Below, one piece after another: positions 4,184 to 38,488 of a DNA stretch of 64,000 nt. The DNA is from Patescibacteria group bacterium (GTDB lineage Bacteria; Patescibacteriota; Patescibacteriia; Magasanikbacterales; GWA2-37-8). Both the position numbers and the translations under genes were made by a program. The stretch is from the NCBI GenBank assembly GCA_022710645.1, contig JAKLGL010000002.1:14337-78336 (forward strand), written 5' to 3'. The notes beneath the pieces were generated by a model. The model did not search any database and was not told the origin of the DNA. It saw only the letters and a list, made by a program, of their open reading frames with translations. Position 1 is the stretch's first letter. Each line of letters opens with the position of its first letter.

Positions 4184-4276
4184 GGAGAGGTGGCTGAGTT
4201 GGTCGAAAGCGGCACACTGCTAATGTGTTGTCTCGTTCTCAAGACGGGACCCAGGGTTCGAATCCCTGCCTCTCCG
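4184..4276 (+). tRNA. tRNA-Ser (anticodon GCU), long variable arm, no encoded CCA
   Basis: Acceptor GGAGAGG/CCTCTCC, D-arm, anticodon loop CUGCUAA, long variable arm, T-loop GGTTCGAATCC. Confidence 0.9.
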
Positions 4277-4466
4277 CATAAAAAATCACCGTAAGGTGAT
4301 TTTTTTATACGGGGAGGAGAAAGCAAAAAGTTTTTCTTTCGTCGGGGTGAGAACGCCGGAGCGATATTTTATGAGCTTGTGAGCGAATAAAATCGCGAGG
4401 CGGTGGCTAGCCCGAGGAGTTGGAAAACGACGAGAGGCGAAGCCGAATCCCTGCCTGCCTCTCCGC
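4271..4466. repeat. Left copy of a roughly 195 bp imperfect direct repeat. It starts in the last bases of tRNA-Ser, includes a terminator hairpin (ATCACCGTAAGGTGAT plus T-run) and a structured segment, and ends in a second, degenerate copy of the tRNA 3' end (CGAATCCCTGCCTGCCTCTCCGC).
   Basis: Near-identical to 9232-9424 (a few substitutions/indels). Confidence 0.85.
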
Positions 4467-4513
4467 CAGATGTCCAAGTTCGAACCGAAGCAGAATAAGT
4501 GTTTTTGGACAAT

Positions 4514-4548
4514 AAAAAACCAATTTCTTAAAGAAGTTGGTTTTTTTA
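4514..4548. terminator. Bidirectional rho-independent terminator (ACCAATTTCTTAAAGAAGTTGGT flanked by A/T runs)
   Basis: Perfect 10-bp stem with U-runs on both strands; lies just downstream of the minus-strand REase gene. Confidence 0.5.
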
Positions 4549-4556
4549 TTACTATT

Positions 4557-5342
4557 TTATTGTTTCTTATTGAATCGTTTAAAATAATTATCTATCTCAT
4601 CCCTAAGTTCAATTCCTACTCGTTCAAAACAATCTAGTAAATCTTTATATGTACCCTTACCATCAAGAAAATCCCAAAATTCATCGGCTACTTTAAGCTC
4701 ATTATCTAAATCAAGCATTCCTCGCATTGTCCATCGAGTATAAGGTTCTGGTTCGTAGGGATTATATGGAATTGCGATAAATGTGTTTATGTCAGCTTTT
4801 GGATTATTTGCTAAAATCACAGCAACCCACTCAAGTAATGTTCTTTTAAACTCCTTGAATCCTCCGGCGTTAGGTTTTGCAGTTTTAATATCAAATAAAT
4901 AATAACCTCCGTCTTTTGACTCAAACATCAAATCCACTTTGGTAGGCTTTGCTTTTATCATCTCGCCAGATTGGCAAACTTTTCTTATTCGTTCTATTTC
5001 TTCTTTTTTGTTTGGTGATGTTGTCGCTGTCGTTAATCCGTCAATAATTTTCTGTATTTCTGCTTGTGCGCCAGTGCTTATCCGATCTCCGGCAGTAGCC
5101 TGACATGTAGCCATTTTGAAATTCTTTTGTGCTAGAGCCAAGCCAACTGGTTCAAAAATACTTGTTCCAAAATTAGTATTTAGAGAGTGGATAAATGAAT
5201 AAAGTGCAAGTCTATCTTTACCCAAAAGACGAGTATGGAAAGGCATCGAAGCCGGTTCCGGTTTGTAATTTTGGAATTTATTTCTGAGACTTGCTTTTAG
5301 TACATCCTCAACATTTTTAACTTGTTCTTTTGATAGTGCCAT
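4557..5342 (-). CDS. Type II restriction endonuclease, TdeIII-like family
   Basis: 261 aa. The N-terminal region (MPFHTRLLGKDRLALYSFIHSLNTNFGTSIFEPV) resembles the RE_TdeIII family from memory. Immediately downstream of, and co-oriented with, a DNA methyltransferase. Confidence 0.55.
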   Translation of the reverse strand: MALSKEQVKNVEDVLKASLRNKFQNYKPEPASMPFHTRLLGKDRLALYSFIHSLNTNFGTSIFEPVGLALAQKNFKMATCQATAGDRISTGAQAEIQKIIDGLTTATTSPNKKEEIERIRKVCQSGEMIKAKPTKVDLMFESKDGGYYLFDIKTAKPNAGGFKEFKRTLLEWVAVILANNPKADINTFIAIPYNPYEPEPYTRWTMRGMLDLDNELKVADEFWDFLDGKGTYKDLLDCFERVGIELRDEIDNYFKRFNKKQ

Positions 5343-5346
5343 AAAA

Positions 5347-6921
5347 TTATTTTGATTTAAAATGAAAAATTATTTCGGAATATGGATTCCTATCCCGTTC
5401 TGTTCGATTCAAAACAGGTCTTTTAAATTGATTTACAATCTTCATTCCAGATTTTTCAGCAATTTCTGGATAAAGATTATATTTATCGTTTGCAACAAGG
5501 AAAATATCGTAATTTTCCTTTAAATATTTCTTGCAATTATTTAGAACATCAGCTATTCCCTGAGCATATGATCTGCGAGCCTCCTGTCCTTGCCCTTTAT
5601 AAAGCGGACCGATTTCTAGATCATCCTTTCGTTTAAATCCGAGCAAATCGTAAGCATAAGCGTGTTGCTCGTGATAATCTATTTGTCCAACATAAGGAGG
5701 CGAGCAAAATATACCTGAGATTTTTTGTTTTTTAAGAATCTTTGCAAATTCCGGATTCTGCTTTTCAACTTTTTCAAAAATATCCACAGCTCTTGAATCA
5801 CCAGCAATAGCTGAGTAATGGACTGGTTTTCGCAATCTTTCAAATTCTTTTATTCTTGAAACAGTGTCGTAAGCATAGCGATTAAGCATTGTTTTGATTG
5901 AAAACAACGGCTTGCAAATCTTTTTATGCTTGTAGCAATAATATGTAGTTAATTGTGGTTCTTTTAGGGTAGCAAGATCACTATGTGTTGTAGCTCTGCA
6001 TGACCTAATTGTTCGACTTAAAATTAAAGCCAGAATCTTTTTTGTTTTTAAATCTTTCTCTTGTTTTATGGTATTGAAAACATGATCAATTTCTTTTCTC
6101 ACACTATCCATAAACCAAGTATCCAAAAATGACTCTGCTTTATCCTGTTTCAATTTTATTGAATATTTTTTAAGTAATTTTTGATAGGTAGGCAAAAACT
6201 CTTTTTCTTTCTCTGATGAAAACTTTTTTTCATCAAAATTTCCTTGGTTTATTTTGTATTTAAAATCTGAACCGGGAAAATGCTTGTTATTAAACTTTGC
6301 CAATTCTGCCAACAATTCAGTTTCAAACTCCTGGATTTTATTATCATGTTCAAAAGTATCAATAGCCGAAAGCATTTTCTTTATCGCCTTCTGTAAATAT
6401 TCATGATCGTAATTTGTTGCTTTACAACTTGCAATCATGCAATTAAATTCGGACACATCAATACCAACAGAATGAATACCCATTTCCAATGATTGGATAA
6501 TTGTTGTGCCAGAACCAAGAAAAGGGTCGAGAACTATATCACCATTTTTAAAATAAACTTCTTTTTTAAAATCATCTGTATGGGAATCAATAAAATATTC
6601 AACAAGTTGTGGAATATATTTCCCTTTATATGGATGTAATCGATGAACATGCTTTGTTGTATCTTTTTCTCTAAGATTATCGAAAGATAATGCCCAGTTT
6701 AAATCATCACCGAGTTGCTTCTTCCAATCAATCTCTCGTTTACCTTTCCATGATTCGTAATACTTTTTCAAATCATTCAAATCAATAAGGGTTGACCCAT
6801 TTTCTCCAAGTTTCTTAACCTTTCCATACTGAACAAGGTAAGAAATATTTGTTGGTGATACTTCTTTTTCAAGGTAATCCGTCGCCCATTTTGATGCTTC
6901 GTGTATTGTTACTAATGACAT
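5347..6921 (-). CDS. Type II DNA methyltransferase, amino-MTase (N4-cytosine or N6-adenine). Motif I is DPFLGSGTT and motif IV is SPPY.
   Basis: DPFLGSGTT (AdoMet binding) near residue 133 and FCSPPY near residue 400. The SPPY form favours N4C. Four-nt gap to the REase gene. Confidence 0.85.
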   Translation of the reverse strand: MSLVTIHEASKWATDYLEKEVSPTNISYLVQYGKVKKLGENGSTLIDLNDLKKYYESWKGKREIDWKKQLGDDLNWALSFDNLREKDTTKHVHRLHPYKGKYIPQLVEYFIDSHTDDFKKEVYFKNGDIVLDPFLGSGTTIIQSLEMGIHSVGIDVSEFNCMIASCKATNYDHEYLQKAIKKMLSAIDTFEHDNKIQEFETELLAELAKFNNKHFPGSDFKYKINQGNFDEKKFSSEKEKEFLPTYQKLLKKYSIKLKQDKAESFLDTWFMDSVRKEIDHVFNTIKQEKDLKTKKILALILSRTIRSCRATTHSDLATLKEPQLTTYYCYKHKKICKPLFSIKTMLNRYAYDTVSRIKEFERLRKPVHYSAIAGDSRAVDIFEKVEKQNPEFAKILKKQKISGIFCSPPYVGQIDYHEQHAYAYDLLGFKRKDDLEIGPLYKGQGQEARRSYAQGIADVLNNCKKYLKENYDIFLVANDKYNLYPEIAEKSGMKIVNQFKRPVLNRTERDRNPYSEIIFHFKSK

Positions 6922-6930
6922 AAGTTTATT

Positions 6931-7554
6931 TTAAAATTCTTTTCTTAATACTCCTACGACCTTTCCTTGAATGACAACATTTGATTCGTAAAATGGCTTC
7001 ATTGTTTGGTTTGCCGGAACAAGTTTTATCCTATCCTTTTCTCTGTATATTTTTTTGAGTGTTACTTCGTTTCTATCCGGCATATACGCTACCGCCTTTT
7101 CTCCATCATCTACTGATTGCTGATCTCTCACAACGACGATGTCTCCGTCCGATATTCCTTCTTCAATCATACTCAGACCAGAAACTTTGAGTGCGTAGTA
7201 ATCATGTCCCAGGGAAAGCATACTTCGCGGTACTTCTATTGGTTTTGGGTCGCGGATGGCTTCAATTGGACCACCAGCAGAAATAATTCCCATTAGAGGT
7301 ATCATTACTTCTGGAACCCTGTGGTTGTGCAAAGCGTTGATTGATCGTTTTTTTCCTTTATCCACCAAAAGAAGATTTTTACTTCGCAAAGAATAAACAT
7401 GCTGATGAATTGTTGGCACTGAACGCTTAAAAAACTTGGCTATTTCTACCAGTGAAGGTGAGAAACCATTTTCTTGGCGATATTCCCGTGCAAATTGTAG
7501 GATTTCGGCTTCCCGTTTTGTAGGTTTACCTATTCCAATACTTGACTTCTTCAT
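6931..7554 (-). CDS. lexA: LexA-type repressor (N-terminal winged HTH plus S24 peptidase domain)
   Basis: Ala-Gly autocleavage site in IISAGGPIEA, catalytic Ser in GLSM, Lys in VTLKKI, N-terminal HTH. Confidence 0.8.
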   Translation of the reverse strand: MKKSSIGIGKPTKREAEILQFAREYRQENGFSPSLVEIAKFFKRSVPTIHQHVYSLRSKNLLLVDKGKKRSINALHNHRVPEVMIPLMGIISAGGPIEAIRDPKPIEVPRSMLSLGHDYYALKVSGLSMIEEGISDGDIVVVRDQQSVDDGEKAVAYMPDRNEVTLKKIYREKDRIKLVPANQTMKPFYESNVVIQGKVVGVLRKEF

Positions 7555-7578
7555 ATACCTAGAATTATAATACCTAAA

Positions 7579-7604
7579 GATAACCTAAACAAGAGCGGGT
7601 TATC
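7579..7604. promoter_or_regulatory. Candidate operator: perfect 7-bp inverted repeat GATAACC-N12-GGTTATC in the divergent lexA / 7633-gene intergenic region. A TTATCCACA DnaA-box-like 9-mer overlaps its right arm.
   Basis: Inverted repeat seen directly, centred between divergently transcribed genes. Confidence 0.4.
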
Positions 7605-7632
7605 CACACTATTAATAAATTAACAAAACACT

Positions 7633-8202
7633 ATGGAACAAGACAAAGAAATTTCGGCAATGAATGAAATTATTGCCTCATTAAACAATTTGGATGATGG
7701 ACAAAGACAGAGGGTTATGAAATATGTACTTGAACGATTTGGTGCTACAACCAATTCCCTAACAAACCCCTCAACATTTTCTCCGGTGTCTCAACCCGCT
7801 CCTCAATTCGATGAACTTGGAAGCAGTCAAGCCACAAGAGTAATTGACATCAGAGCTTTTAAAGAAGAAAAATCCCCCCGTTCTGCTATTCAAATGGCGG
7901 TTCTGGTCGCGTTCTATCTCCAAGAACTAGCTCCTTCTGATGAAAGAAAAGCAACTGTAGATTCTGGAGATATAGAAAAATATTTTAAGCAAGCAAGCTA
8001 TAAATTGCCTTCTGGTAAAAATGGAGCTGCAGATACTCTCACAAACGCTAAAAAGGCGGGGTATTTAGAGATAGCTGACCGTGGTACATATAAACTAAAC
8101 CCTGTCGGATATAATCTCATCGCCCACAGTTTGCCCAATGGCGATAGCGAGCTAAGAAAAACCAGGACCAAGGTAAAAAAGGTAAAGAAAGCTAAAAAAT
8201 AG
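7633..8202 (+). CDS. Hypothetical protein, 189 aa. Possible winged-helix-like C-terminal region and a basic lysine-rich tail.
   Basis: ORF with a 2-nt gap to the downstream gene (operon). Ends KTRTKVKKVKKAKK. Confidence 0.6.
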   Translation: MEQDKEISAMNEIIASLNNLDDGQRQRVMKYVLERFGATTNSLTNPSTFSPVSQPAPQFDELGSSQATRVIDIRAFKEEKSPRSAIQMAVLVAFYLQELAPSDERKATVDSGDIEKYFKQASYKLPSGKNGAADTLTNAKKAGYLEIADRGTYKLNPVGYNLIAHSLPNGDSELRKTRTKVKKVKKAKK

Positions 8203-8204
8203 TT

Positions 8205-9017
8205 ATGGATTCTGCTAATGACAACCTAGCAGAAAAACTGAAAGCCACCGAAAAGCTACTAAAAAGAGTTAATTCAATAAAATCTAAGCAGCTCGGTTCG
8301 ACTTCGGTTAAAGATGAGATAAAGGCTTTTGTAAAAGCCTATTTTGAAATTTTACAGTCCGATTTAAAGAATCGAAATATTTCAACAGGTGATCTTGATA
8401 TTGCAATGCAAAATTTAATAACTCTTGCAAATACCAAAGCTCTCACCTCGAAGTACAAAACTCTACTCAAGAAAGTTAAAATGGAATTGGTAATAGTAGA
8501 ATCATCGGGAACATACACTAGTCGTAATAGAGACGCGGGAGTACTAAGTAATGGATATGAACAAGCTATATTGAAAATCCTAAATCAAATCGTTCCTGCT
8601 ATTGGTAATTCATATCAACAAGTTTTGAATGATCTGAATTCTCCAAGAATTTCATATAGAGGCACTGTTGCCGAAATAAGAGAGGTTTTAAGAGAAACTC
8701 TTGATTACCTCGCTCCAGATGAGGATGTCAAAAACATGAAAGATTTTAAACTTGAAAAAGATATGACAAAGCCAACAATGAAACAAAAGGTTCGTTATGT
8801 CTTGAGTAACCGAGGAAAGTCAGAAACTGCTACAAAATCTCCCGAGGATGCTGCTCATATTGTTGATGATGGTGTAGAGAGGTTGGTTAGATCAACTTAT
8901 AATCGTGGGTCGTTATCCACCCACACAACTACTTCTGACAGAGCGGAAGCATGCCAAATAAAAATGTATCTTGATACAGTTCTTTGTGAATTATTAGAGA
9001 TACATAGCAAAAACTAA
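8205..9017 (+). CDS. Hypothetical protein, 270 aa. N-terminal helical/coiled region. A C-terminal R-x5-H (RGSLSTH) may be a HEPN-like motif; this is tentative.
   Basis: ORF only; the motif was noted by eye. Confidence 0.6.
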   Translation: MDSANDNLAEKLKATEKLLKRVNSIKSKQLGSTSVKDEIKAFVKAYFEILQSDLKNRNISTGDLDIAMQNLITLANTKALTSKYKTLLKKVKMELVIVESSGTYTSRNRDAGVLSNGYEQAILKILNQIVPAIGNSYQQVLNDLNSPRISYRGTVAEIREVLRETLDYLAPDEDVKNMKDFKLEKDMTKPTMKQKVRYVLSNRGKSETATKSPEDAAHIVDDGVERLVRSTYNRGSLSTHTTTSDRAEACQIKMYLDTVLCELLEIHSKN

Positions 9018-9231
9018 GGAGCCACTCATAGTAGACGGGGTATATGCGTGACGAAAGTAAATTTACATAAAATAATCTATCTCATTCTTTCCCTTTGTTG
9101 ATTTCGGTTGAGGAACTTCAAACCATTCAGGATGTTGTTTAAACATATCTCGTAATTCTTTTATAATTGGATCAAGAGTCCAGATTGTGAACCGTCTAAA
9201 TTGCCGTTTTGGTTCTAATTTCGGGACATCA

Positions 9232-9424
9232 TCTCCGCATATAAAATCACCGTAAGGTGATTTTTTTATACGGGGAGGAGAAAGCAAAAAGTTTTGCTTT
9301 CGTCGGGATGAGAACGCCGGAGCGATATTTTATGAGCTTGTGAGCGAATAAAATCGCGAGGCGGTGGCTAGCCCGAGGAGTTGAAAAACGACGAGAAACG
9401 AAGCCGAATCCCTGCCTCTCCGCA
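9232..9424. repeat. Right copy of the roughly 195 bp direct repeat; ends in an exact copy of the tRNA-Ser 3' end (CGAATCCCTGCCTCTCCGCA)
   Basis: Alignment to 4271-4466. Confidence 0.85.
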
Positions 9425-9513
9425 TAAAAAACCTGCCTATAAAGGCAGATTTTATATTAATCTAAATAAACATTGAAACAGTCTTTTATTTAAAGTATAC
9501 TTAAAAATGCCTT

Positions 9514-12818: not shown

Positions 12819-14420
12819 ATGACTAAATTTATCAAAATTTTTCTCTTGATTTATAATATAATTTTTATCTTATTTTTTGTTTCCAACATCTTTGATTTTG
12901 ATTTTGGTTGGCATTTGCGATTCGGTAAAGAATGGTTGGAAAACGGATTTTTTCCTTATACTGACGGTTATACTTACCCTCATTTGGGTCAAATTTGGGT
13001 TAATCACGAATGGGGCGGAGACCTGCTGTATTGGATAATTTATAAAAACATCGGTTATTATCCGTTGGTTTTGGTAATTCCTCTTTTGGTTTTAGCCGCT
13101 TTTTGGATAGCTCAAAAAACTTACGGCAAATACGGTTTGGAAGCGACACTGGTAACGACTTTTCTGGTTTGGGCGGATTATCATATTTTTGCTCCTCGCT
13201 TAGCGATGTTTTCTCTGATTTTTTTCGCTATTTTTCTTTATACTTTGCAAAACATAGAAAAAACCAAACTTTATCGCTTTTGGCCGCTTCTTTTTTGGTT
13301 GTGGTCTTTTTTGCACGGAAGTTTCACGCTCGGTTTCATAGTTATCGGAATTTATTTCACCGGAAATTTATTAAATTGTTTCTTCCAAAAATATTATCCA
13401 AGATTGGTATTGGGACAATCTTGGAAAAAAGAAACTTTTTATAAAGTTTCGCTTTGGGGGTTGATTTCTTTGGTAGCTATTTTCATAAACCCTTACGGTT
13501 GGCTTTTGCCGAAAGAAACCGTTTCTTATTTTTTCTATGATTTTTACAAAACTCACGTGACTGAGTGGTTGGCGAGTAATACTTTTCCTATTTTTTGGAA
13601 GACCGGCTTGTTCATCGCGCCGGCTTTGGTGGCTGTGTTTTGGCAAGTGAAGAAAAAAGTTTTTTCCTGGGCGGAATTATTGCTTTTTTTGGGACTGCTT
13701 TACATATCTTTCAAATATAAACGTCAAGTGATTTATCTGGCTTTATTTTGTCAGCCACTTTTCAGTTCTTTTTTGGCGCAAATCAAAGAATCTTTCTTGG
13801 CAATTCCGAAATGGAAACTATTTTTGGAAAATAAAAACACAAAAATCACCGCTTTTGTCATCGGAATATTTCTAATACTTTATTCCTGTCAGCTCTATTT
13901 CCCTTATATCAAAATATACAAAGATGTCTGGCCCCATATAAAAGAAATCGGCCAATATATGCCCGTGGATGCCGTAGAATTTCTAAATCGGGAAATAAAT
14001 TCCGAATATAAAGTCAAAATCTTTAACGAATTCGGCTGGGGAGCCTATATGAATTGGACATTGCCGCAAGGTTTGGTTTTTCTAGACGGGAGAGGAACCG
14101 CCACTTGGAAAATACCAGGTTCAGATATCACAACTTTGGAGACTTACTATAACTGGCGTTATTATCAAAACAACGGTTTGAAAGAAATTGAAAAACAAAA
14201 CATCCAATATGTGATTTTGGAAAATATGAACTCCTTCACTCCACGAGTCAATCGCGTCAACAAATGGCTTTTCACTTCCGCAGCTTTGAAACACGCCACG
14301 ACTTTGGCCGATGACAAATTGGAAAAAGATTTGAAGATAAGCGAAGATTGGAAATTGATTTATACCGACGATCGCGCCAATATTTGGAAATATCAACCTA
14401 TTCAGCCCGAAACAAAGTAA
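12819..14420 (+). CDS. Large polytopic membrane protein, possibly a GT-C-type glycosyltransferase (ArnT/PMT-like)
   Basis: 533 aa, more than 12 predicted TM helices, a large C-terminal extracytoplasmic domain. The family assignment is weak. Confidence 0.6.
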   Translation: MTKFIKIFLLIYNIIFILFFVSNIFDFDFGWHLRFGKEWLENGFFPYTDGYTYPHLGQIWVNHEWGGDLLYWIIYKNIGYYPLVLVIPLLVLAAFWIAQKTYGKYGLEATLVTTFLVWADYHIFAPRLAMFSLIFFAIFLYTLQNIEKTKLYRFWPLLFWLWSFLHGSFTLGFIVIGIYFTGNLLNCFFQKYYPRLVLGQSWKKETFYKVSLWGLISLVAIFINPYGWLLPKETVSYFFYDFYKTHVTEWLASNTFPIFWKTGLFIAPALVAVFWQVKKKVFSWAELLLFLGLLYISFKYKRQVIYLALFCQPLFSSFLAQIKESFLAIPKWKLFLENKNTKITAFVIGIFLILYSCQLYFPYIKIYKDVWPHIKEIGQYMPVDAVEFLNREINSEYKVKIFNEFGWGAYMNWTLPQGLVFLDGRGTATWKIPGSDITTLETYYNWRYYQNNGLKEIEKQNIQYVILENMNSFTPRVNRVNKWLFTSAALKHATTLADDKLEKDLKISEDWKLIYTDDRANIWKYQPIQPETK

Positions 14421-15135
14421 GCGCCCACACTTCTATCGCACCGGCTTCCTTGCAAACTCTGGCCGCTTCTTGCAAAGTGGCACCGGTAGTAAAAACATCA
14501 TCAATCAAGACCACTCGTTTTTGCGGGAGGTTTTTTATTTTGAAAGCGTTTTTTATATTCTCCATTCTCTCCTCTCTTTTCAACTTGGCTTGTTGTTTGG
14601 TTTTTTTAACCCTTTCCAATAAATCCGTAACAACAAAATCTCGTTCGGGATAATATTCCCGGGCTTTAGCCAAAAATATTTCCGTCAATTCTTTCGCCTG
14701 ATTAAAACCGCGCCAGCGTTCGCGAACGGAAAATAAAGGAATAAAAGAAAAAGTCGTATTTTCCTCAAGCCAAAAATCATTTCGCCTAAAAACTTTATTT
14801 TTAGAAATCATTTCATACCACAAATTTTCCAAATCTTTCATAAAACCATATTTATAATCATGCAGTAGATCGGAAAGCGGAGAAGGTTCATAAAAAGGAA
14901 AGAACGAAATTACTCCATCAAGAAAAGACTCTTTTTGGCAACAACTACAAACAGAACCTTTTTTATTTTCTATTTTACAAATCGGACAACGCCAAATCCC
15001 TTCATTATCCAAAAAATGACGATGCTCAAGGCACCACCATTGCCCTTCCGCCCCGCAATCCACACATTTTTTGGGAAACAAAAAATCTTTTACCATTGGT
15101 AATTTTTCCAAAATAAATTTTATCATATTAAACAA
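14398..15135 (-). CDS. comF: ComF-family protein (phosphoribosyltransferase-type competence protein with an N-terminal Zn finger)
   Basis: CxxC pairs at the N-terminus; PRTase motif VVLIDDVFTTGATL. Confidence 0.8.
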   Translation of the reverse strand: MFNMIKFILEKLPMVKDFLFPKKCVDCGAEGQWWCLEHRHFLDNEGIWRCPICKIENKKGSVCSCCQKESFLDGVISFFPFYEPSPLSDLLHDYKYGFMKDLENLWYEMISKNKVFRRNDFWLEENTTFSFIPLFSVRERWRGFNQAKELTEIFLAKAREYYPERDFVVTDLLERVKKTKQQAKLKREERMENIKNAFKIKNLPQKRVVLIDDVFTTGATLQEAARVCKEAGAIEVWALTLFRAE

Positions 15136-15179
15136 AAATCCGTCCCGATTTTATATCGAGGCGGATTTTTTAAAAAATA

Positions 15180-15782
15180 TTATTTCCATTTTACATTATC
15201 CACCAACCAGCCTTCGCCGTTTCTAACCAAAGAAATCTCAGCTTCTTGATTGTAATTTTTTACAACTCCGCCATTATTTTCCTCGCGAGAAGTAATGGCG
15301 CGAATAGTCGCTTTTTCCGCCGTAATTTCTGTCACAGTAACACTGAAAGCCTCGGTTGTAACTCCGATAAACTCCTTGCCGGTATTCATACCTTCTATTC
15401 TTTTTGCAAAAACATTCCAAAGATCTTTCGTACTCAAAGACTCTAACTCTTTCAAATTTTGTCCGGGGTTATCCGTAGAATAAGATCCGTATCTTTCAAT
15501 AAAAATTTTAGCGATACTTTGCGCAGCCGATTTGATTTTTTCTTCTTCACTTAAAGGAGATACGGCAGGATTGATTCCTATTGCCGTCGGTACCGTACCA
15601 TTGGCAACAATGGCGGTATCGGTTTGACCGCCGACAGTTTGTTCTTGGTTATTCTGTGTATTCTCCCCGCTATCTGTATTTCTTTGTTTGGAAAAAACTA
15701 TCAAACCGACACTTATCGCCAAAATCAACAGAACCACTATGCTAATGATAATAAAAATTCTCGCTCTTAAAGTCAAATTCAT
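15180..15782 (-). CDS. Hypothetical TM-anchored secreted protein, candidate VirB8-like component
   Basis: N-terminal TM, roughly 170 aa extracytoplasmic domain, adjacent to VirB4. The VirB8 call is speculative. Confidence 0.5.
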   Translation of the reverse strand: MNLTLRARIFIIISIVVLLILAISVGLIVFSKQRNTDSGENTQNNQEQTVGGQTDTAIVANGTVPTAIGINPAVSPLSEEEKIKSAAQSIAKIFIERYGSYSTDNPGQNLKELESLSTKDLWNVFAKRIEGMNTGKEFIGVTTEAFSVTVTEITAEKATIRAITSREENNGGVVKNYNQEAEISLVRNGEGWLVDNVKWK

Positions 15783-15786
15783 ATTT

Positions 15787-17667
15787 TTATTCTTTATTTA
15801 ATAATTGTTCTTCAAATTCCTTTTTGGCTTTTTCAATGGCTAGTAATTGTTCCGGATTGGTGGTAACTATCTGATCTTCGAAATTAGAAGCCAAAACTTG
15901 AATACCGGCATGTTTACTCCCAGCAAAGAAAATACCTTGACCGACGGAAGAATTTAATAAAAACATCCTCTCACTATCGGTTAAAGCAAAAGACTTTTGC
16001 ACTAAATCTATGGCTGTCGGAGACTGTTTGAGCAATAATTGCAAAGCGGAATTGGTAACAATCGGCTGTCCGTATTGAGAACGTAAAAAGTCGTTAACAT
16101 CTTGAGTAATAGTGGTTATACCGAGATAATATTTACGACAACGTTTCACTAAAGCGAAGATAAAACTCGCGCTATCCTCTTGTTGCATCAACCACCAGGC
16201 TTCGTCTATCACCAAAATCCTTTTCTTGCGTTCCGAGCGAACTATATTCCAAATAAAATTAACAATAGTATAAATGGCCATTGGACGAAGTTCGGCTTCC
16301 AAATCACGAACACCAAAAACCATCAATTGATTATTCAAATCAACATTGGTCGGAGAGTTGAAAAGCCCGCTAAATGTGCCTTCGGTAAATTTATTTAATT
16401 TCAAAACCAGCTCTTCGGAATTGGTCATCCCCTCCAAAACTTCCTGTAAATCTTGCATGATAGGAGCTTGTACAGTATTCAAATCCGCATCTCGAGTAAT
16501 ATCTTTTTTGGCGTAAGTTTCCAAAAGAGCTTTATCAATAACGGAATCTTGTTGAGTGGTTAAACCGCCAAGCATAATTTTCAATAAACCTTTCACGGTA
16601 ATAATGGCGCTACGTATAACATCTTCAGTGCTCATTTCCAAATTTCCCGTTTGTTTTGGTAGATCAAACGGATTAATTTTCGCTTCCGAAGACAAAGAAA
16701 TATTCACGTAAGTTCCGCCGACAGCGTCACACAGATGTTTGTATTCCATTTCCGGATCTATAACTATAATATCTACCCCCATCATGAGCGAGCGTAATAT
16801 TTCCAATTTTATCGCATAACTTTTACCCGCGCCCGAACTGGCAAAAACCACCATATTGGCGTTTTGCAAAGAAAATCTGTCAAAAACTATCAAGCTGTTA
16901 TTGTGTAAATTGATACCGTAAAAAATCCCATTGTCGGAAGTAAGTTCGGCGGAAACAAACGGAAAAGATGCGGCTATAGGCGAAGAATTCAAGTTAAAAG
17001 GAATATACAACTCATCGTTACAAATCGGTAAAGTGGAATTAAAACCTTGCTCAGCTTGATAAAAAACCTTATGAGTGATGATGAGTTTTGAACCAAAAAT
17101 ACCTTCCACATCTTCTGAAAGTTGATCTAATTCTTTTTTATCTTTGGCATAGAGAGTAACATAAAAACAAAATTGAAAAAAATGTTCGGTACCTTGCGTC
17201 AGATTGTCGCGTAATTGTTCAATATCCCTCAAAGCGGTCTCGCGTAATGGGTCGCGCGGAGCGCCTTTTTCTCTATCAGCGCTCAATTGAGCTTCCAAAG
17301 CTCCAACTTTATTTTTCAACTGTTTCAAAATAACCGCTGATTTAACCGGATAAAAAAACATACCGATATCCATGGTTGAAGCCAGATTAATAACCGGCGA
17401 ACTCCAACCGATACTGATATAACGAGGATAAGCGGAAATAAAAATCGTTCGGCAATAAATGTCTCCCAATTGCAAAAAACTACTTTCAACTCTGAAAGCT
17501 GCCGGAGATATCAAATCACGAATGGAAACTTCGCTTTCCCGATAAACTCTTTCTTCCTGCAAAGTCAACAATTCCTCCTCTACTTTTTTCTTGAGTTGAC
17601 CCTGCTCTCTTTCGTAAATGGTAGTTTGATTTTTTTCTATTTTTCCGCTTATTGGTTTGAAAGCCAT
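15787..17667 (-). CDS. virB4: VirB4/TraE-family type IV secretion ATPase (Gram-positive PrgJ/TcpF-like)
   Basis: Walker A SSGAGKS, Walker B ILVIDEAWW, N-terminal LQLGDIYCRTIFISAYPRYISIGW motif typical of VirB4/TraE. Confidence 0.85.
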   Translation of the reverse strand: MAFKPISGKIEKNQTTIYEREQGQLKKKVEEELLTLQEERVYRESEVSIRDLISPAAFRVESSFLQLGDIYCRTIFISAYPRYISIGWSSPVINLASTMDIGMFFYPVKSAVILKQLKNKVGALEAQLSADREKGAPRDPLRETALRDIEQLRDNLTQGTEHFFQFCFYVTLYAKDKKELDQLSEDVEGIFGSKLIITHKVFYQAEQGFNSTLPICNDELYIPFNLNSSPIAASFPFVSAELTSDNGIFYGINLHNNSLIVFDRFSLQNANMVVFASSGAGKSYAIKLEILRSLMMGVDIIVIDPEMEYKHLCDAVGGTYVNISLSSEAKINPFDLPKQTGNLEMSTEDVIRSAIITVKGLLKIMLGGLTTQQDSVIDKALLETYAKKDITRDADLNTVQAPIMQDLQEVLEGMTNSEELVLKLNKFTEGTFSGLFNSPTNVDLNNQLMVFGVRDLEAELRPMAIYTIVNFIWNIVRSERKKRILVIDEAWWLMQQEDSASFIFALVKRCRKYYLGITTITQDVNDFLRSQYGQPIVTNSALQLLLKQSPTAIDLVQKSFALTDSERMFLLNSSVGQGIFFAGSKHAGIQVLASNFEDQIVTTNPEQLLAIEKAKKEFEEQLLNKE

Positions 17668-17676
17668 ATTTTTTGA

Positions 17677-18360
17677 TTAAGATTCAACCCTCATATAATC
17701 CACTGGCGCCAAAGGCTGATTTTGCGCAATATCCGGATTATAAGTAGAATAATATAATTCAATCAATGCTTGAGTATCCAAGCGTATAACATCAAGATTC
17801 ATCCCGGACAAACCGGCTTCTATCAATCTAACTCTGGCATCCAATTCTCCTTTTCTTTTTTTGAAAGTTTCTTCTTTCAAACGAATCAAATTTATCGGAT
17901 TCAAAGCATCGCCCAAACGAGACCAAAAACTTTTTTTCTTGTTAGTCATAGGATCGTAAGGCACCACAACATAAAATTGTTTTGAAGTGATATTACGCAA
18001 AGTCACCGTCTCATTGATAAAAGATATATAATCGGATATCTGGGCTTTCAGCAATTCGTTTTCTATCTGCTCCCGACGAGCTTGCAATGTCTCCATATAG
18101 GGCCTGATATTGAGTTGTCGAGATTGAATACAAATCTGCAAAGGGTGATCCAGAGAATTCAAAAACGAAACATAGGAAGAAATTATAGCCTGCTGTTCTT
18201 CTTCGTTGAGCAAACCGAAATTAACGCTACTAACCATCAATACCGCTCTTAAAGTACCGTCTTTCATCACCACAGTGTCATTCTTGACTTCCGAAATCGG
18301 CACATGAGCCTGAGAATTCGGTATACTTTTTTTCTTTTTTATCGATTGTTCGTTTTTCAT
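17677..18360 (-). CDS. Hypothetical T4SS-associated protein (227 aa)
   Basis: ORF between the PrgI-like and VirB4 genes with tight spacing. Confidence 0.55.
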   Translation of the reverse strand: MKNEQSIKKKKSIPNSQAHVPISEVKNDTVVMKDGTLRAVLMVSSVNFGLLNEEEQQAIISSYVSFLNSLDHPLQICIQSRQLNIRPYMETLQARREQIENELLKAQISDYISFINETVTLRNITSKQFYVVVPYDPMTNKKKSFWSRLGDALNPINLIRLKEETFKKRKGELDARVRLIEAGLSGMNLDVIRLDTQALIELYYSTYNPDIAQNQPLAPVDYMRVES

Positions 18361-18365
18361 AATTT

Positions 18366-18803
18366 TTAAATATTTTTTTCCTCCGGACCGTAATAACCTC
18401 CGGTATTAACTGCCAAAGATAGTTGCCTGATTCTGCTTCGGCTTATTTGAGGCGCGATTTGTTTTTTGGCCATAACCGGCAATTTGTGCAACTCTTGAAT
18501 AGATTTCAATTCCGCATCAGTATAACGTCTATCCCAAATACGTAAACTCGGCCGACGTAAAGTTTGAAAAATATTCAACAAAAAATAATGAAATGGCTGC
18601 CCGTTTATTTTCACAAATGCCAAAATTAAAGCCGAACCGCCAATAAGACAAAGTAAAAAAATAAACAAAGCCGTATCGGCCAATTTGTAAGCCACAAAAA
18701 TAACCAGAGAAGCGGTCAATAAAATCACAAACTGTCTGGTGGTAACCGGACCGATAATTTTATCTTCTACATCTATAAATTGCGGCACGACAAATTGATC
18801 CAT
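18366..18803 (-). CDS. PrgI/VirB3-like small membrane protein
   Basis: N-terminal VPQFIDVEDKIIGPVTTRQF followed by two TM helices, a pattern typical of PrgI-family proteins adjacent to VirB4. Confidence 0.6.
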   Translation of the reverse strand: MDQFVVPQFIDVEDKIIGPVTTRQFVILLTASLVIFVAYKLADTALFIFLLCLIGGSALILAFVKINGQPFHYFLLNIFQTLRRPSLRIWDRRYTDAELKSIQELHKLPVMAKKQIAPQISRSRIRQLSLAVNTGGYYGPEEKNI

Positions 18804-18807
18804 ATTT

Positions 18808-19836
18808 TTATATTTCCTTTTCCATTTTTATCAAAGATTTTATTTCTTGAAAACTTAGGTTGTCTTCTTTCTTGGGTAAACCGGACAACGGGATGCCTTT
18901 ATTCAAACTTTCGCAAACCGCTTCCAGATATTTTTTGTAAAGCGGACTTTGTTGCCAAGCTTCCAGTGCTTCCAAATACAAAAGAAAAGATTCTTCTTTG
19001 AGATTGATAAATTTTTGTTGCAAACGAGATGTCGCTTGTTCCAAATCCGAGGATAATCTTCGAAAGTCAATAACGGTAAAATTCTTTATTTCTTCTATTG
19101 GTCCGAAAGTGACATTTTTCGGAGGTAAAATATCCCCTATCGGAGAAGAACTGTTTATCTTATTCGCTTTTATCAATTGATTGATATTTTCCATTTTCGG
19201 CTCAGCTTTTTCTATCAAGTCGTCAAGCGATTTAATTTCTTTTATTTCTTTGTTGAACTTCGGTTTATGCACAAAAGAATTAAACGGCGAAGAGGAGCTT
19301 GGCAATATTTCTCCTTCAGGCATCGGCAACTGATTTTTCTTACCCGGAATTTTTTTTAAAGGTCCGTAAAATTCTTGTTTTTCTGAAGAAATACTCAAAA
19401 TTTTATCTTGAGCAATTTTGATAACTTCTTTTATTTGATTATTGTTTAAATCCGCCCCTCCCAAATAAACCGGCTGGCGCAAAACGTCGCTTAACTGCTC
19501 GGAATTTTTGATGTCTTTCAAAAATAAAATTATATTATTTTTCAAATTTGAAGCGGCCTGATCCGTCAATTTGAAAGAAAGTTTTTCCATCACCTCTTTG
19601 GCCTCTTCTTCTCTTTTATTGAAAGAACCGTGTTTTAAATTTTTTATTTCTTCATCTTCCAAAGGACTTTTTATATCTTCTTTTGTCCAAACATTTTGCG
19701 AAGAAACAACTTTTTCTTTTTCAACTTTAACAGTCGGCGAAACGGGTCGTTCATCGTTTTTTTTCAAATCGGAAATTTTCATCCTCGCGAATGTTCCGTC
19801 TTTCTTTTTAACCAAAATTGTTTTATCTTGATTCAT
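18808..19836 (-). CDS. Hypothetical charged protein (342 aa), in the same operon as the T4SS genes
   Basis: ORF with a 4-nt gap to the downstream gene. Confidence 0.55.
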   Translation of the reverse strand: MNQDKTILVKKKDGTFARMKISDLKKNDERPVSPTVKVEKEKVVSSQNVWTKEDIKSPLEDEEIKNLKHGSFNKREEEAKEVMEKLSFKLTDQAASNLKNNIILFLKDIKNSEQLSDVLRQPVYLGGADLNNNQIKEVIKIAQDKILSISSEKQEFYGPLKKIPGKKNQLPMPEGEILPSSSSPFNSFVHKPKFNKEIKEIKSLDDLIEKAEPKMENINQLIKANKINSSSPIGDILPPKNVTFGPIEEIKNFTVIDFRRLSSDLEQATSRLQQKFINLKEESFLLYLEALEAWQQSPLYKKYLEAVCESLNKGIPLSGLPKKEDNLSFQEIKSLIKMEKEI

Positions 19837-19842
19837 AATTTC

Positions 19843-20622
19843 TTATTGCGAAAAATCAAACATTTGTTCGGCAACTTTTTTCACTTCTTCGTCACTCAAT
19901 TTCTCTAAAGCTGTTTTTTCTATATATCCGGTATTCAATAACATTTCTCTCAACAAGGTCGGATTGGCAAATAATTCTTCTTTACTCATAGTAGTGCTTG
20001 TTCCCTGTCCAGATCCGGATAATTGCGTATTAAGCGCATTTTTAAATTCTACAGAATTAAAGACTTCCTGTCCGATCTGTTTCAATTCTTCGTCGGTTAC
20101 ACCAACCAATAAATCCTCGCTAATACCCGAAGAAATAAGAATCTTTTTAATTTGTACCGGATCGTTAAAATAATCGGCGGGATTTAGTATATAACCTTCG
20201 GACTGAGAATCTTTGATCCATGATTCCAAAATTTGTTCGGTTTTGGTTTCTCCGCTTTCTTGATTACAAGAAGATCCTTCGGCGCAAATAGGATTTTTCC
20301 CTTGCAATATTTCTTCTTTATCTTTTATACCGTCGCTGTCGGTATCTTCCAGATAGGCGCTGGTATCATATATATAAATCTCTTCAAAATCGTTCAAACC
20401 GTCTTTATCCGTATCTCGATAATGCAACGCTTCGGTCGGATCGCTAAATTTTTCTTTTATCAACGTACTCGGAACAGCATTACTCAAAGCATAAGGACGA
20501 TATAGATTATTTCTCAATTGAAAAAAACTCAAAACCAAAAATAGTACGGCAAAAATAAGCAAAAATACAAAACCGAACTTTTGCTCCAAAGTTAAGCCAG
20601 TTTTTTCCTGGTTTTCAGCCAT
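19843..20622 (-). CDS. TM-anchored protein with calcium-binding DxDxDG (thrombospondin-type-3/dockerin-like) repeats
   Basis: N-terminal TM; DTDKDGLNDFEE and DTDSDGIKDKEE motifs. Confidence 0.6.
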   Translation of the reverse strand: MAENQEKTGLTLEQKFGFVFLLIFAVLFLVLSFFQLRNNLYRPYALSNAVPSTLIKEKFSDPTEALHYRDTDKDGLNDFEEIYIYDTSAYLEDTDSDGIKDKEEILQGKNPICAEGSSCNQESGETKTEQILESWIKDSQSEGYILNPADYFNDPVQIKKILISSGISEDLLVGVTDEELKQIGQEVFNSVEFKNALNTQLSGSGQGTSTTMSKEELFANPTLLREMLLNTGYIEKTALEKLSDEEVKKVAEQMFDFSQ

Positions 20623-20720
20623 AATTAGATAAATTTTTTCACTTTTATATTATACCATTTTCTCATTTTTTGAGATAGTGGATAACTGAAACAAGGTAGC
20701 TAAAACAAAAACTCGCCAGA

Positions 20721-21590
20721 TTATGGCGAGTTTATTATTGAAAAAAGTCGCAACCATTCCTCTAGACTTAATTCTTGGGCGCGGATATTTTCGGGAAACT
20801 CCATTTTTGCAAAAGCTTCATCTACCGTTTTTTTGTTTTTATCGCCTAAATAATTTTTTAAATTTTTTATCAATAATTTACGTTTATTGATAAATCCGGC
20901 CCTAACAAAAGCAAAAAACTCTTTTTCATCTATTTTTGGCAATTTTTTTTTCAAAACTATTTTGATAACTGCTGAGTCAACTTTGGGCGCAGGATAAAAA
21001 TCATTCCTAGAAACAAATGCGATAATCTCTGGTTCGCCAAAATATTGAACAGAAATGCCCAAAACTGATAAATCTCCAGGTTTAGCACATATTCTCTCCC
21101 CTACTTCTTTTTGAACCATCACCACCATACTTTCCGGCTTATTTTCTTGTTCCAAAAAAAATCGAATTATTTGTGAAGTTATTTGATAAGGCAAATTCGC
21201 CACAACTTTATACTTTCCCATTTCTTCCGGTGACCTTAAGGACTTTGCAGATTTTATGGATTTTTGACTATTTAACACATTCCCCCAAATAATTTCCAAA
21301 TTTTTATACTCTTTTTGTTTTTCTTCCCAATAAGGTTGAATCTTTTTTTCTATTTCATAAGCCATTACTTTTCCCGCCTTTTCACAAAGCGAAAATGTCA
21401 AAACTCCGAACCCCGGACCAACTTCTATCACTTCGTCTTTTTTACTTACATCTCCGGCTTCAACCATTTTTTGCACTACTTCTTCGTTTAATAAAAAATT
21501 CTGCCCATACTGTTTGCTCGGACGAAGACCATATTTTTGACAGAGATGTTGAAGATAGTCGGGATTAAACAGTTTTTCCATACTTAACAT
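20721..21590 (-). CDS. rsmA: 16S rRNA (adenine1518/1519-N6)-dimethyltransferase
   Basis: YGQNFL motif plus the AdoMet motif VIEVGPGFGVLT. Confidence 0.9.
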   Translation of the reverse strand: MLSMEKLFNPDYLQHLCQKYGLRPSKQYGQNFLLNEEVVQKMVEAGDVSKKDEVIEVGPGFGVLTFSLCEKAGKVMAYEIEKKIQPYWEEKQKEYKNLEIIWGNVLNSQKSIKSAKSLRSPEEMGKYKVVANLPYQITSQIIRFFLEQENKPESMVVMVQKEVGERICAKPGDLSVLGISVQYFGEPEIIAFVSRNDFYPAPKVDSAVIKIVLKKKLPKIDEKEFFAFVRAGFINKRKLLIKNLKNYLGDKNKKTVDEAFAKMEFPENIRAQELSLEEWLRLFSIINSP

Positions 21591-22090: not shown

Positions 22091-23830
22091 TTATTTTAAT
22101 CCGGCATCGGTATACCTGTTACTCGCATTCCACATCAACCAACCGGCGTTTGCGTATTTTTCCACTACTTCTATTTGCGCGCGAATTTTTTCCGCATCAT
22201 AAACAGCTCCCATATCAAAAGCCTGGATCCACGGTCGAACTTGCGCTCTTTTACCTTCAAATTTAGGCGCTCCGATTTTCATTCCGTTTTCAAACACAAG
22301 ACCTGGATTTGCCGCAGGATTTATCAAACCCAAATGACCGGATGGGTAATGAGATGGATACATCATAGGACAAACATAGTCCACATTATCAACCGTATCC
22401 GCAATTCTCTGCCCGATAGACATATCATCAACCCCGTTTTTTTCCATTGTAAAACCAAATAAATCCAGAGAAATCCAAACAGGGTCATTTTTAAAATTAT
22501 TGTTTAAAAATCTATAAAACTCTCCCATCACTTCATATTTCTTTTTACTTTCTTCATCATAAAGCGTATCGGCCATATTACCATCAGACGGGAACCTCAC
22601 ATAATCAAAATTTATTTCATCAAAACCGAACTGTATTGCTTCTTTGGCAATCGCCAAATTATATTTCCACACTTCTTTTTTGGTCGGATCAACCCAGCTC
22701 AGACCTTTCTTGTCGCGCCACAATCCTCCACGTTGACTTTTAATAGCCCACTCCGGTTTTTTCTCGGCCAAAACCGGATCTTGAAAAACGGTTTGTCTGG
22801 CAATAACATAAATTTTTTCCGCGTGCAATTTTTCAATCAATTTTTTAACATCACCTAAACGATTATCTTTATTTTTTAACGACACCACCAAAGGAACCTG
22901 GCTATCATACAAAACCAAACCGCTGTAATCTTTGATATCAATCACTACGGCATTGAGCTCGGTTTTTTTGATTAAACTTATCATTTGCTCCATTTTTTTG
23001 GAACTCCCGGCCGAATAAGCGGTTAGATATATTCCTTTTACTTTTATCAAAGGATTTTTTACTCCCGCAAAATGGCGATTTTTTACATTTACCATCAGCA
23101 TGGCGTTATTCATACCTTCAATATACGAAACAGTAGAAGAAGACCAGACTAAAATAAAAAATCCGGAAAAAAAAGAAGCTATCGCCAGCAAACAAAAGTA
23201 AAAATAATCTTTTTTGTTTTCGGAAAGTTTTATCATGGTTTCACCTTGTCTTAATAATTGTATTTTATCAACTTCCACATTAACCAACGTAGTCGGTTTT
23301 CGCAAAGGTAAATCTTGTCCATCAACTAAAATATCGGGTTGTTTTTCTTGGTCGATAAAAGTGTTTGTGATATCTTCAAATTTATAAATTTCACTTTGCC
23401 CTGAAAGATTGGCTGAAGTCGCCACCAAAGGTCCACCGAGTTTAGCTGTAATTTCTCTTAAAAAACCGTTTGCGCTTACTCGCACAGCCAATTTACCCGA
23501 AGAAGAAACCACTCCGTATGGAAAGGCTTGCGGATTTTTACAATATCCTATGATAGTTAAAGGACCGGGCCAATATTTTTTCGCCAAATCGTTTAAATTT
23601 TTATTCCAAACCAAATATTTTTTCGCTTCTTCAATACTATCAACTATCACCAATAACGGCTTACTATAATCTCTTTTTTTTATTTGAAAAATTTTTTCCA
23701 CCGCCTCTTTATTTTTTGCGTCACAACCCAAACCATAGGAAGTTTCGGTCGGAAACACAACCGTTCGCCCAGCTTTTAACTCAACAATAATTTCATCGGT
23801 TTGATTTTTATTAAAAATTTTCACATTCAA
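22091..23830 (-). CDS. Fusion protein: N-terminal YrdC/Sua5 (TsaC) threonylcarbamoyl-AMP synthase domain, a TM helix, and a C-terminal glycoside-hydrolase-like TIM-barrel domain (GHL10/DUF4015-like)
   Basis: TsaC signature VFPTETSYGLGCDA...KPLLVIV at the N-terminus. A hydrophobic segment near residues 205-228. C-terminal FGFDEINFDYVRFP region. Confidence 0.75.
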   Translation of the reverse strand: MNVKIFNKNQTDEIIVELKAGRTVVFPTETSYGLGCDAKNKEAVEKIFQIKKRDYSKPLLVIVDSIEEAKKYLVWNKNLNDLAKKYWPGPLTIIGYCKNPQAFPYGVVSSSGKLAVRVSANGFLREITAKLGGPLVATSANLSGQSEIYKFEDITNTFIDQEKQPDILVDGQDLPLRKPTTLVNVEVDKIQLLRQGETMIKLSENKKDYFYFCLLAIASFFSGFFILVWSSSTVSYIEGMNNAMLMVNVKNRHFAGVKNPLIKVKGIYLTAYSAGSSKKMEQMISLIKKTELNAVVIDIKDYSGLVLYDSQVPLVVSLKNKDNRLGDVKKLIEKLHAEKIYVIARQTVFQDPVLAEKKPEWAIKSQRGGLWRDKKGLSWVDPTKKEVWKYNLAIAKEAIQFGFDEINFDYVRFPSDGNMADTLYDEESKKKYEVMGEFYRFLNNNFKNDPVWISLDLFGFTMEKNGVDDMSIGQRIADTVDNVDYVCPMMYPSHYPSGHLGLINPAANPGLVFENGMKIGAPKFEGKRAQVRPWIQAFDMGAVYDAEKIRAQIEVVEKYANAGWLMWNASNRYTDAGLK

Positions 23831-38283: not shown

Positions 38284-38302
38284 TCTAACTTTCAATTCTC
38301 TC

Positions 38303-38332
38303 GCCCGTTCACTTCTGTGGACGGGCTTTTTT
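38303..38332 (+). terminator. Rho-independent terminator (GCCCGTTCACTTCTGTGGACGGGC plus TTTTTT)
   Basis: Stem-loop and U-run directly after the stop at 38283. Confidence 0.65.
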
Positions 38333-38398
38333 GTAAACATTAATCTTTTGCACGAATATACACAAATGAACTTTGAATATTGAATATTAGCTATTAAA

Positions 38399-38428
38399 AC
38401 ATCCCGATTTTATATCGGGATGTTTTTT
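38399..38428. terminator. Hairpin terminator ATCCCGATTTTATATCGGGAT plus T-run. It shares the 16-mer TCCCGATTTTATATCG with the hairpin at 15148.
   Basis: Perfect 8-bp stem; sits between convergent genes. Confidence 0.5.
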
Positions 38429-38488
38429 GATTTATTTATCTCTTTGTATTTTTATCACTTTATCAACATATAATCTTATCTCTTTCTC

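Follow-up and report, generated by a model that had tools for sequence, protein, structure and literature searches.

Patescibacteria's type IV secretion system (T4SS) has been surveyed across the phylum by Quinonero-Coronel et al. (2025; PMC12102498), who report VirB4 in 2,417 of 3,035 Patescibacteria genomes, nearly all of it belonging to one clade nested within the mating-pair-formation type MPF_FATA. TrsD is its most frequent partner and PrgI/VirB3 is found alongside; VirB6 and VirB8 are scarce, the VirB8 hits coming almost all from the class ABY1, and VirB2-like pilin arrays are reported. The gene ksgA ranks among the common neighbours, comF, recG and radA adjoin the T4SS in ABY1, and the VirB4 tree follows the division into taxonomic classes, transfer between classes being nearly absent. 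In Saccharibacteria, epibiotic growth requires a homologous system that has no recognisable coupling protein or relaxase (Wang et al. 2023; PMC10633639). A 2024 perspective calls the role of the T4SS 'completely unknown' and lists it as a candidate route for the acquisition of nucleotides or DNA (PMC11665869). Here we analyse a gene cluster at 14398-20622 on the minus strand of a 64-kb stretch of DNA from a Patescibacteria group bacterium (contig JAKLGL010000002.1). This whole stretch is called the window below, and coordinates are window positions. Very probably the cluster is a chromosomal, non-conjugative T4SS of the Patescibacteria clade, derived from MPF_FATA, in the version found in Magasanikbacteria (ABY1). 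A first-pass annotation, made from the letters of the window, had taken it for a stand-alone VirB4 module that is probably not conjugative. That reading was right but not new: a description published in 2025, for the phylum as a whole and for ABY1 in particular, already covers TrsD and PrgI, the absence of a relaxase, and ksgA and comF as neighbours (PMC12102498).

Seven open reading frames (ORFs) make up the cluster, in the order p259-p342-PrgI-TrsD-like-VirB4-p200-ComF. All seven are real and lie on the strand and at the positions where the first-pass annotation had put them. With two putative regulatory elements upstream, they are:

20709-20733, minus strand: terminator-like hairpin with a 10-bp stem and a T-run, straddling the RsmA stop codon (a consensus match of presumed function)
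20649-20657, minus strand: extended -10 promoter element TGGTATAAT, with 27 nt between it and the downstream p259 ATG (read by eye)
19843-20622, minus strand: p259, a predicted membrane-anchored extracytoplasmic protein with TSP3 motifs (TSP3_bac E 1e-4, below cut-off; one hydrophobic helix)
18808-19836, minus strand: p342, a predicted soluble protein and conserved orphan (no family match; AlphaFold2 pLDDT 74)
18366-18803, minus strand: PrgI/VirB3-like protein with two transmembrane (TM) helices (PF12666 E 3e-9, above cut-off)
17677-18360, minus strand: TrsD/TraD-like protein of 227 aa (NF041427 TrsD E 1e-12)
15787-17667, minus strand: VirB4 ATPase of 626 aa (NF045971, above curated cut-off; Walker A and B intact)
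15180-15782, minus strand: p200, a putative VirB8/PrgL-like bitopic protein (AlphaFold2 model and Foldseek)
14398-15135, minus strand: ComF of the ComFC type, last gene of the operon (TIGR00201 E 1e-25, below curated cut-off; phosphoribosyltransferase domain; CxxC motifs)

These genes look like one operon with a promoter of its own, because a terminator-like hairpin closes rsmA and an extended -10 element precedes p259. The hairpin would set rsmA apart from the T4SS genes, and TGGTATAAT is the likely operon promoter; a consensus promoter scan missed it because its -35 element is weak. The ORFs are spaced 4-9 nt apart (5 nt between PrgI and the TrsD-like gene, 9 nt between the latter and virB4), with the exception of the 44 nt ahead of comF. 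ComF had been described as directly upstream of the cluster; it is instead the last, 3' gene of the operon.

What kind of VirB4 does the operon encode? The 626-aa protein scores 363.5 bits (E 2e-108) against the NCBIfam model NF045971, 'VirB4-like conjugal transfer ATPase, CD1110 family', for which the curated cut-off is 325, and its ATPase domain matches PDB entry 4ag5 (E 3e-48). The LQLGD motif (residue 65), Walker A (GAGKS, 279) and Walker B (ILVIDE, 484) are all intact, so that the call of a Gram-positive-type VirB4 carrying these motifs is borne out. The nearest matches outside the candidate phyla radiation (CPR) come from plasmids of Bacillota and Actinomycetota at 28-34% identity, as would be expected of a VirB4 of the monoderm MPF_FATA type. 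No plasmid VirB4 exceeds 34%, against 68-96% for the 80 best genome matches, every one of them a Patescibacteria-type locus; we use this difference as a proxy for clade membership. PrgI scores 37.7 bits against Pfam PF12666 (cut-off 27) and has two hydrophobic helices, in agreement with its annotation as a PrgI/VirB3-like membrane protein.

The 227-aa protein had been left as an 'unknown', which it is not. It matches the TrsD/TraD family NF041427 (E 1e-12) and the N-terminal parts of models for full-length Gram-positive VirB4, namely positions 94-243 of NF045975 (Mbov_0397; E 4e-13) and 4-119 of NF045971 (CD1110), while the 626-aa protein aligns to positions 174-730 of the 752 in NF045971. Since the two proteins match consecutive parts of VirB4 in this way, VirB4 is split: the TrsD-like protein is the detached N-terminal domain of a Gram-positive VirB4 and the 626-aa ATPase its C-terminal two-thirds.

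The gene order was followed by tblastn through the best 80 VirB4 loci among species-representative genomes (L001-L080), most of them from Magasanikbacteria and the others from unclassified Patescibacteria. The order p342-PrgI-TrsD-VirB4-p200-ComF is near-universal in these loci and is kept in about 60 species-level Magasanikbacteria genomes; all six genes are present in 58 of the 65 loci with enough flanking sequence, with junction medians of about 10-17 nt. The synteny that the first-pass annotation had proposed to look for in relatives is therefore there. Compared with the closest relative on a long contig (L002, 906 kb), VirB4 is 92% identical, release factor RF2 85%, the TrsD-like protein 82%, PrgI 82%, RsmA 75%, ComF 64%, p200 56% and p342 55%. 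Because VirB4 is more conserved than RF2, we take the cluster to serve a vertically inherited core function under strong selection and not to be a decaying mobile element. A metagenome-assembled genome (MAG) named 'Candidatus Magasanikbacteria bacterium' encodes P5230_03310 and P5230_03290, which match p200 and p342, respectively, at 100% identity.

Two observations on this comparison set may be recorded here. A subclade of high GC content (about 55%) has 5-8 kb of genes between the TrsD-like gene and virB4, which break an otherwise invariant junction (L072:2200-10000, L078:600-7010, L079:1100-6080, L080:4300-10000); none of the L072 ORFs scanned has a Pfam match, and no inserted ORF has a counterpart in the window. 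Dozens of records that carry the operon, with VirB4 at 70-96% identity (L001, L007, L010-L013 and others), bear the title 'uncultured Gammaproteobacteria bacterium' or, in one case, 'Candidatus Udaeobacter'; they seem to be mislabelled MAGs.

The genomic setting is that of an ordinary chromosome. GC content is uniform around the cluster at 33-38%, and the two flanks within the window, 14 kb and 43 kb long, are housekeeping in character, with genes for Sua5, RF2, YidC, NusA, ComEC (32062-33582), LeuRS, IF-2, TruB, RNase Y, TsaD and Fpg. The view could be extended by 8-10 kb past each end of the window on metagenome contigs that share its sequence: VanW, ClpP, DHH, SMC and S16 lie past one end, DnaE, an IS200-type transposase and PheT past the other. 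Uniform composition, housekeeping flanks, conserved order and the strong conservation of VirB4 all speak for the stand-alone, non-conjugative module of the first-pass annotation.

Which parts of a T4SS are not encoded here? No ORF of at least 110 aa in the 64 kb matches a relaxase, VirD4 or VirB6 family, which agrees with the first-pass annotation, and none of the three is among the genes called in the 8-10 kb past either end; a complete conjugative element just outside the window, which that annotation had named as the finding that would overturn its reading, is not seen there. The operon contains no peptidoglycan hydrolase domain of the VirB1 kind. A crude hydrophobicity scan, as distinct from a pilin profile search, found no small ORF with two hydrophobic helices, as in a VirB2-like pilin, in the operon or the intergenic gaps of the window. 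Ced and ComB components have no family match in the window beyond CedB (53.6 bits against a cut-off of 700) and CedD (23 bits).

The missing VirB6 takes on a different aspect when relatives are considered. A protein of 810-1,870 aa, with 8-10 N-terminal TM helices and a long charged tail, is encoded in 51 of the 80 relatives (loci among L003-L077), which is nearly all of those with enough upstream sequence. Its gene shares the strand of p342 and stands one to three genes upstream of it (for example L040:2994-6326); between the two, 33 loci have a soluble protein of about 350 aa without a family. When these large proteins were scanned singly, TrbL/VirB6 was the sole recurrent Pfam family, matched by 8 of 31 at a best, sub-threshold E of 2e-4; their database homologues match positions 3-200 of the 215 in the TrbL profile (E 3e-4), and in one relative there is a weak match to the CD3337/EF1877 mobilome membrane protein family. 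We read the upstream protein, on these profile matches, as a divergent, extended VirB6. Its profile aligns to a 779-aa protein of Pontibacillus with an hhalign probability of 17% and a shared LxPQT..W motif, a similarity that is suggestive only; a search against solved structures gave an archaellin match alone, which we consider spurious. The window and its two closest relatives (L001 and L002) do not have the VirB6-like protein, and p259 and rsmA occupy its position; this small clade has apparently lost the cis-encoded gene. Among the 32 proteins listed as matches in a database search with the VirB6-like profile (A3), none is from this MAG.

The protein encoded right after virB4, p200, was approached through its fold. 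An AlphaFold2 model built from 50 homologues has a mean pLDDT of 83.9, rising above 90 over residues 78-200. It predicts a single TM helix (residues 5-34, the protein's one N-terminal hydrophobic helix), a disordered linker, and then three helices on four long antiparallel strands, an NTF2-like domain spanning residues 78-200. A Foldseek search of the PDB returned NTF2-like folds. The 50 best hits contain many VirB8-family chains, with E from 1.5e-4 to 2e-3 and target-normalised TM-scores of 0.5-0.67, among them CagV 6iqt, Rickettsia VirB8 4o3v, TcpC 3ub1, PrgL 7aed, R388 TrwG 7o41/8rta, DotI 3wz4 and IcmL 5cnl. p200 thus models as VirB8-like. With the VirB8/PrgL/TcpC/DotI family it shares bitopic topology, an NTF2-like extracytoplasmic domain and a gene next to virB4; it differs in having no detectable sequence similarity (6-17% identity in structural alignments) and in the disordered linker of about 30 residues between TM helix and domain.

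p342 contains no hydrophobic helix; its charged character, which the first-pass annotation had noted, comes from 57 K/R and 53 D/E residues. Its AlphaFold2 model (pLDDT 74) suggests an N-terminal beta-hairpin and, at about residues 75-150 and 245-341, two helical domains modelled with confidence; a predicted disordered linker carries a conserved PFNSFVH motif. Neither Foldseek (best E 2.8) nor a profile search of PDB sequences found a relative of known structure, and Pfam and NCBIfam gave no family match. An exhaustive profile search of 1.84 billion representatives at 50% identity nevertheless yielded 2,482 members at E<=1e-3 and 914 at E<=1e-30, and in relatives the homologues are always encoded directly upstream of PrgI. 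On this evidence p342 is a conserved orphan representing a large uncharacterised family.

p259, by comparison, was detected only in the two closest relatives (L001 and L002) among the 80 loci searched by tblastn. It has one N-terminal hydrophobic helix and two DxDxDGxxDxxE calcium-binding motifs of thrombospondin type 3 (TSP3), at residues 70-81 and 93-104, and is best described as a predicted extracytoplasmic surface protein specific to this clade. The first-pass annotation had recognised two TM-anchored extracytoplasmic proteins, one with DxDxDG repeats, and these are p200 and p259 with one helix each. Its broader suggestion, that the unassigned proteins are lineage-specific parts of the machine, holds in part: p227 is TrsD-like, p200 VirB8-like, p342 a conserved orphan, and p259 confined to the closest clade. 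The profile searches that it had called for, together with structure comparisons, placed p227 with TrsD by profile and p200 with VirB8 by fold, and placed neither p200 by sequence nor p342 by any method. As a separate observation, a YkuD L,D-transpeptidase encoded at 29888-30502 (minus strand) carries the same pair of TSP3 motifs behind an N-terminal anchor. Because this enzyme shares the motif pair of p259, the organism may use the TM plus TSP3 module for envelope anchoring in general and not specifically for the T4SS.

ComFC-type proteins handle incoming single-stranded DNA during transformation. The ComF of this operon matches TIGR00201 (E 1e-25, below the model's curated cut-off), contains a phosphoribosyltransferase domain and has Cys-rich CxxC motifs at residues 24, 50 and 63. 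The presence of comF beside T4SS genes, a signature of the class ABY1, is found in the window and in 61 of 66 relatives, where the distance from p200 to comF falls within -60 to +100 nt; the median is 2 nt and the two genes often overlap. This junction is kept across about 60 species while the outer flanking genes vary.

Convergent with comF, and overlapping its 3' end by 23 nt, lies a gene for a polytopic membrane protein of 533 aa (12819-14420, plus strand) with at least eight TM helices, a C-terminal soluble domain and no Pfam or NCBIfam family; it occupies the same place in about one third of relatives. We considered it as a stand-in for VirB6 and rejected it: hhalign gives a probability of 0.2% against the VirB6-like profile, and there is no family match.

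How might such a machine work? PrgI/VirB3, the TrsD-like protein and VirB4 would form an ATP-driven platform at the inner membrane, with PrgI anchoring the ATPase, and the VirB8-like p200 would bridge from this platform toward the wall. A VirB6-type channel would be supplied from elsewhere in the genome or be dispensable in this clade. Working outside conjugation, the machine would most likely move macromolecules between epibiont and host, and host or environmental DNA, if imported, could be handed to ComFC in the cytoplasm. Several points weigh against this picture or parts of it. Membership in the Patescibacteria clade rests on nearest-neighbour VirB4 identities. p200 is called VirB8-like from its fold, its bitopic topology and its place right after virB4, with no VirB8 or PrgL match in Pfam or NCBIfam at E<=0.1 and nothing relevant in a profile search of PDB sequences; NTF2-like folds are widespread, and the CaMKII hub, ARC6 and RsgI (RsgI9) score similarly to the VirB8 chains or better. 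A weak hairpin lies in the 44-nt gap before comF, so that co-transcription through comF is presumed. No homologue of the VirB6-like protein was found in the window, either by tblastn or with profile A3 run with filters off on the six-frame translation (best E 0.45), and a complete channel is for that reason not demonstrated for this genome. Lastly, deletion of comEC in Southlakia abolishes competence and leaves viability unaffected (2025 review; PMC12857230); taken with the essential T4SS, this argues against ComEC-dependent transformation as the role of the T4SS, though not against an import that is independent of ComEC.

Is the cargo nucleic acid or protein? We tentatively favour translocation of nucleic acid coupled to ComFC, at less than even odds, because comF is translationally packed onto the operon across the lineage and ComFC has a role in the handling of single-stranded DNA. 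Export of proteins by the same machine, be they effectors, toxins or adhesion factors delivered into or onto the host bacterium, with ComF present by synteny only, is an equally serious candidate at the same tentative grade. The authors of the work on Saccharibacteria lean toward protein export or an alternative role, as type IV coupling protein (T4CP) and relaxase are missing (PMC10633639, PMC11665869); moreover, p259 is extracytoplasmic and encoded in the operon, and genes for large surface proteins lie 18-26 kb away. Yet the operon offers no candidate effector and no substrate receptor of the T4CP type, ABY1 loci gather recG and radA as well (PMC12102498), and the comF junction, with its median of 2 nt, persists in about 60 species despite differing flanks, which mere synteny seldom does. 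A bolder version of nucleic-acid translocation would have a new kind of DNA importer, consisting of a VirB3/TrsD/VirB4/VirB8 platform plus p342 and ComFC, in which ComFC and not VirD4 is the substrate partner, p342 is a cytoplasmic T4SS subunit and this clade manages without a VirB6 in cis. We regard this as unlikely; if true, it would be a ComEC-independent route to host nucleic acid and would explain the nucleotide supply of auxotrophs.

Two further explanations would bring conjugation back. The cluster might be a minimal but genuine machine for conjugation or DNA export, served by an unrecognised relaxase and by a VirD4-like protein encoded elsewhere. VirD4-like T4CP homologues do occur in 2,918 CPR genomes, mostly far from virB4, and the survey leaves open 'very different relaxases yet to be found' (PMC12102498); on the other hand, the T4CP homologue of Southlakia is non-essential while other T4SS genes are essential, and a VirB4 tree that follows class, almost free of inter-class transfer, is not what a self-transmissible element would leave behind (PMC12102498). 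We consider this quite improbable. Poorest in prospects, and by now largely refuted, is a decayed integrative conjugative element whose mating-pair-formation genes survived while relaxase, T4CP and VirB6 were lost or lie just outside. The descent of the genes from monoderm conjugation systems would fit, as would a VirB6 that is missing here and present in relatives, or the IS200-type transposase about 4 kb past the right end of the window. There is, however, no compositional island, housekeeping genes flank the cluster both within the window and past its ends, only 109 relaxases were detected in 3,035 CPR genomes (PMC12102498), and the cluster is kept in about 80 species genomes with VirB4 at 68-96% identity, its motifs intact and its conservation above that of RF2.

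Three features elsewhere in the window deserve mention in their own right. At 4184-9431, a 186-nt direct repeat (97% identical; 4271-4456 and 9232-9417) and a recurrence of the 27-nt 3' end of tRNA-Ser(gct) at 9405-9431 accompany about 5 kb of bracketed sequence that encodes a TdeIII/HinfI-type restriction enzyme, an N6/N4 DNA methylase, a LexA-like S24 repressor, a 189-aa protein without assignment and a protein resembling pPIWI-associated nucleases. This resembles a small defence islet with att-like repeats that has inserted at tRNA-Ser; no integrase was seen, and the layout recurs in three metagenome contigs. The region 36433-46922 encodes large secreted or anchored proteins, namely a 616-aa RCC1-repeat protein, a 1,531-aa protein with Peptidase_S74 (endosialidase-chaperone) and proteins of 890 and 411 aa without a family, which are possible host-adhesion fibres. 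In a single 579-aa ORF at 22091-23830 (minus strand), an N-terminal Sua5/YrdC domain (tRNA t6A synthesis) is joined to a putative glycosyl-hydrolase domain, DUF4015, at the C-terminus, an unusual pairing, with a hydrophobic helix at about residue 208 between the domains.

Why does the locus matter? In the one species tested, epibiotic growth depends on the patescibacterial T4SS, whose cargo is under active study (PMC10633639, PMC11665869). The window is a compact example from Magasanikbacteria and does not open the question, as both the system and the ABY1 comF neighbourhood have been published. It adds the predicted VirB8-like fold of p200, the size of the p342 family and its linkage to prgI, a quantified packing of comF in about 60 species, and a VirB6-less, p259-bearing variant in one clade. 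These additions give concrete handles on the idea of DNA uptake.

Among known systems, ComB of H. pylori and the archaeal Ced system (CedB) resemble the cluster in having a VirB4-family ATPase with no relaxase or T4CP in cis and a link to competence, which here is ComFC. They differ in that the CedB match lies far below cut-off and the window has no outer components like ComB2-B10; DNA uptake, for our cluster, is a hypothesis. The relation to monoderm conjugation systems is closer, and we take the relevant conjugative subclass to be that of pGO1, pSK41 and pIP501, in which the corresponding genes go by the names TrsC-TrsD-TrsE or TraC-TraD-TraE. In the two comparators tested, the Pontibacillus megaplasmid NZ_CP062975 and B. 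cereus p30102_3, the ORF before a VirB4 of about 620 aa has 216-274 aa and is itself preceded by a small one of 116-142 aa. The Pontibacillus ORF preceding VirB4 is homologous to p227 (27% identity, E 2e-32), and its small ORF, a two-TM protein in the same position as PrgI, is homologous to PrgI (E 4e-4). Since these Bacillota clusters share the triad, its order and its homology, the VirB3-TrsD-VirB4 triad is an inheritance from monoderm conjugation machinery. After VirB4 the two part company: the Bacillota comparators continue with a peptidoglycan hydrolase, the window with a VirB8-like protein and ComF. The monoderm systems, moreover, reside on plasmids or integrative conjugative elements, whereas the system of the window is chromosomal and without a relaxase or T4CP nearby.

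Closest of all are the T4SS loci of the Patescibacteria clade itself (PMC12102498), among them that of Southlakia epibionticum (SEML1_0006-0019; PMC10633639). The Southlakia locus has a VirB2-like pilin array, a VirB1-like hydrolase and VirB6, none of which the window shows, and most Magasanikbacteria have the VirB6-like protein with its soluble partner of about 350 aa where the window has the TSP3-repeat protein p259. The p342 family is not named in the main text of the survey (PMC12102498). In other respects the agreement is close: these loci, like ours, combine a VirB4 of the MPF_FATA type with an adjacent TrsD and PrgI/VirB3, are chromosomal and without a relaxase, and have ksgA (rsmA) as a neighbour, with comF joining it in ABY1. 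VirB8-like proteins have been reported almost only from ABY1, the class in which p200, modelled here as VirB8-like, also belongs.

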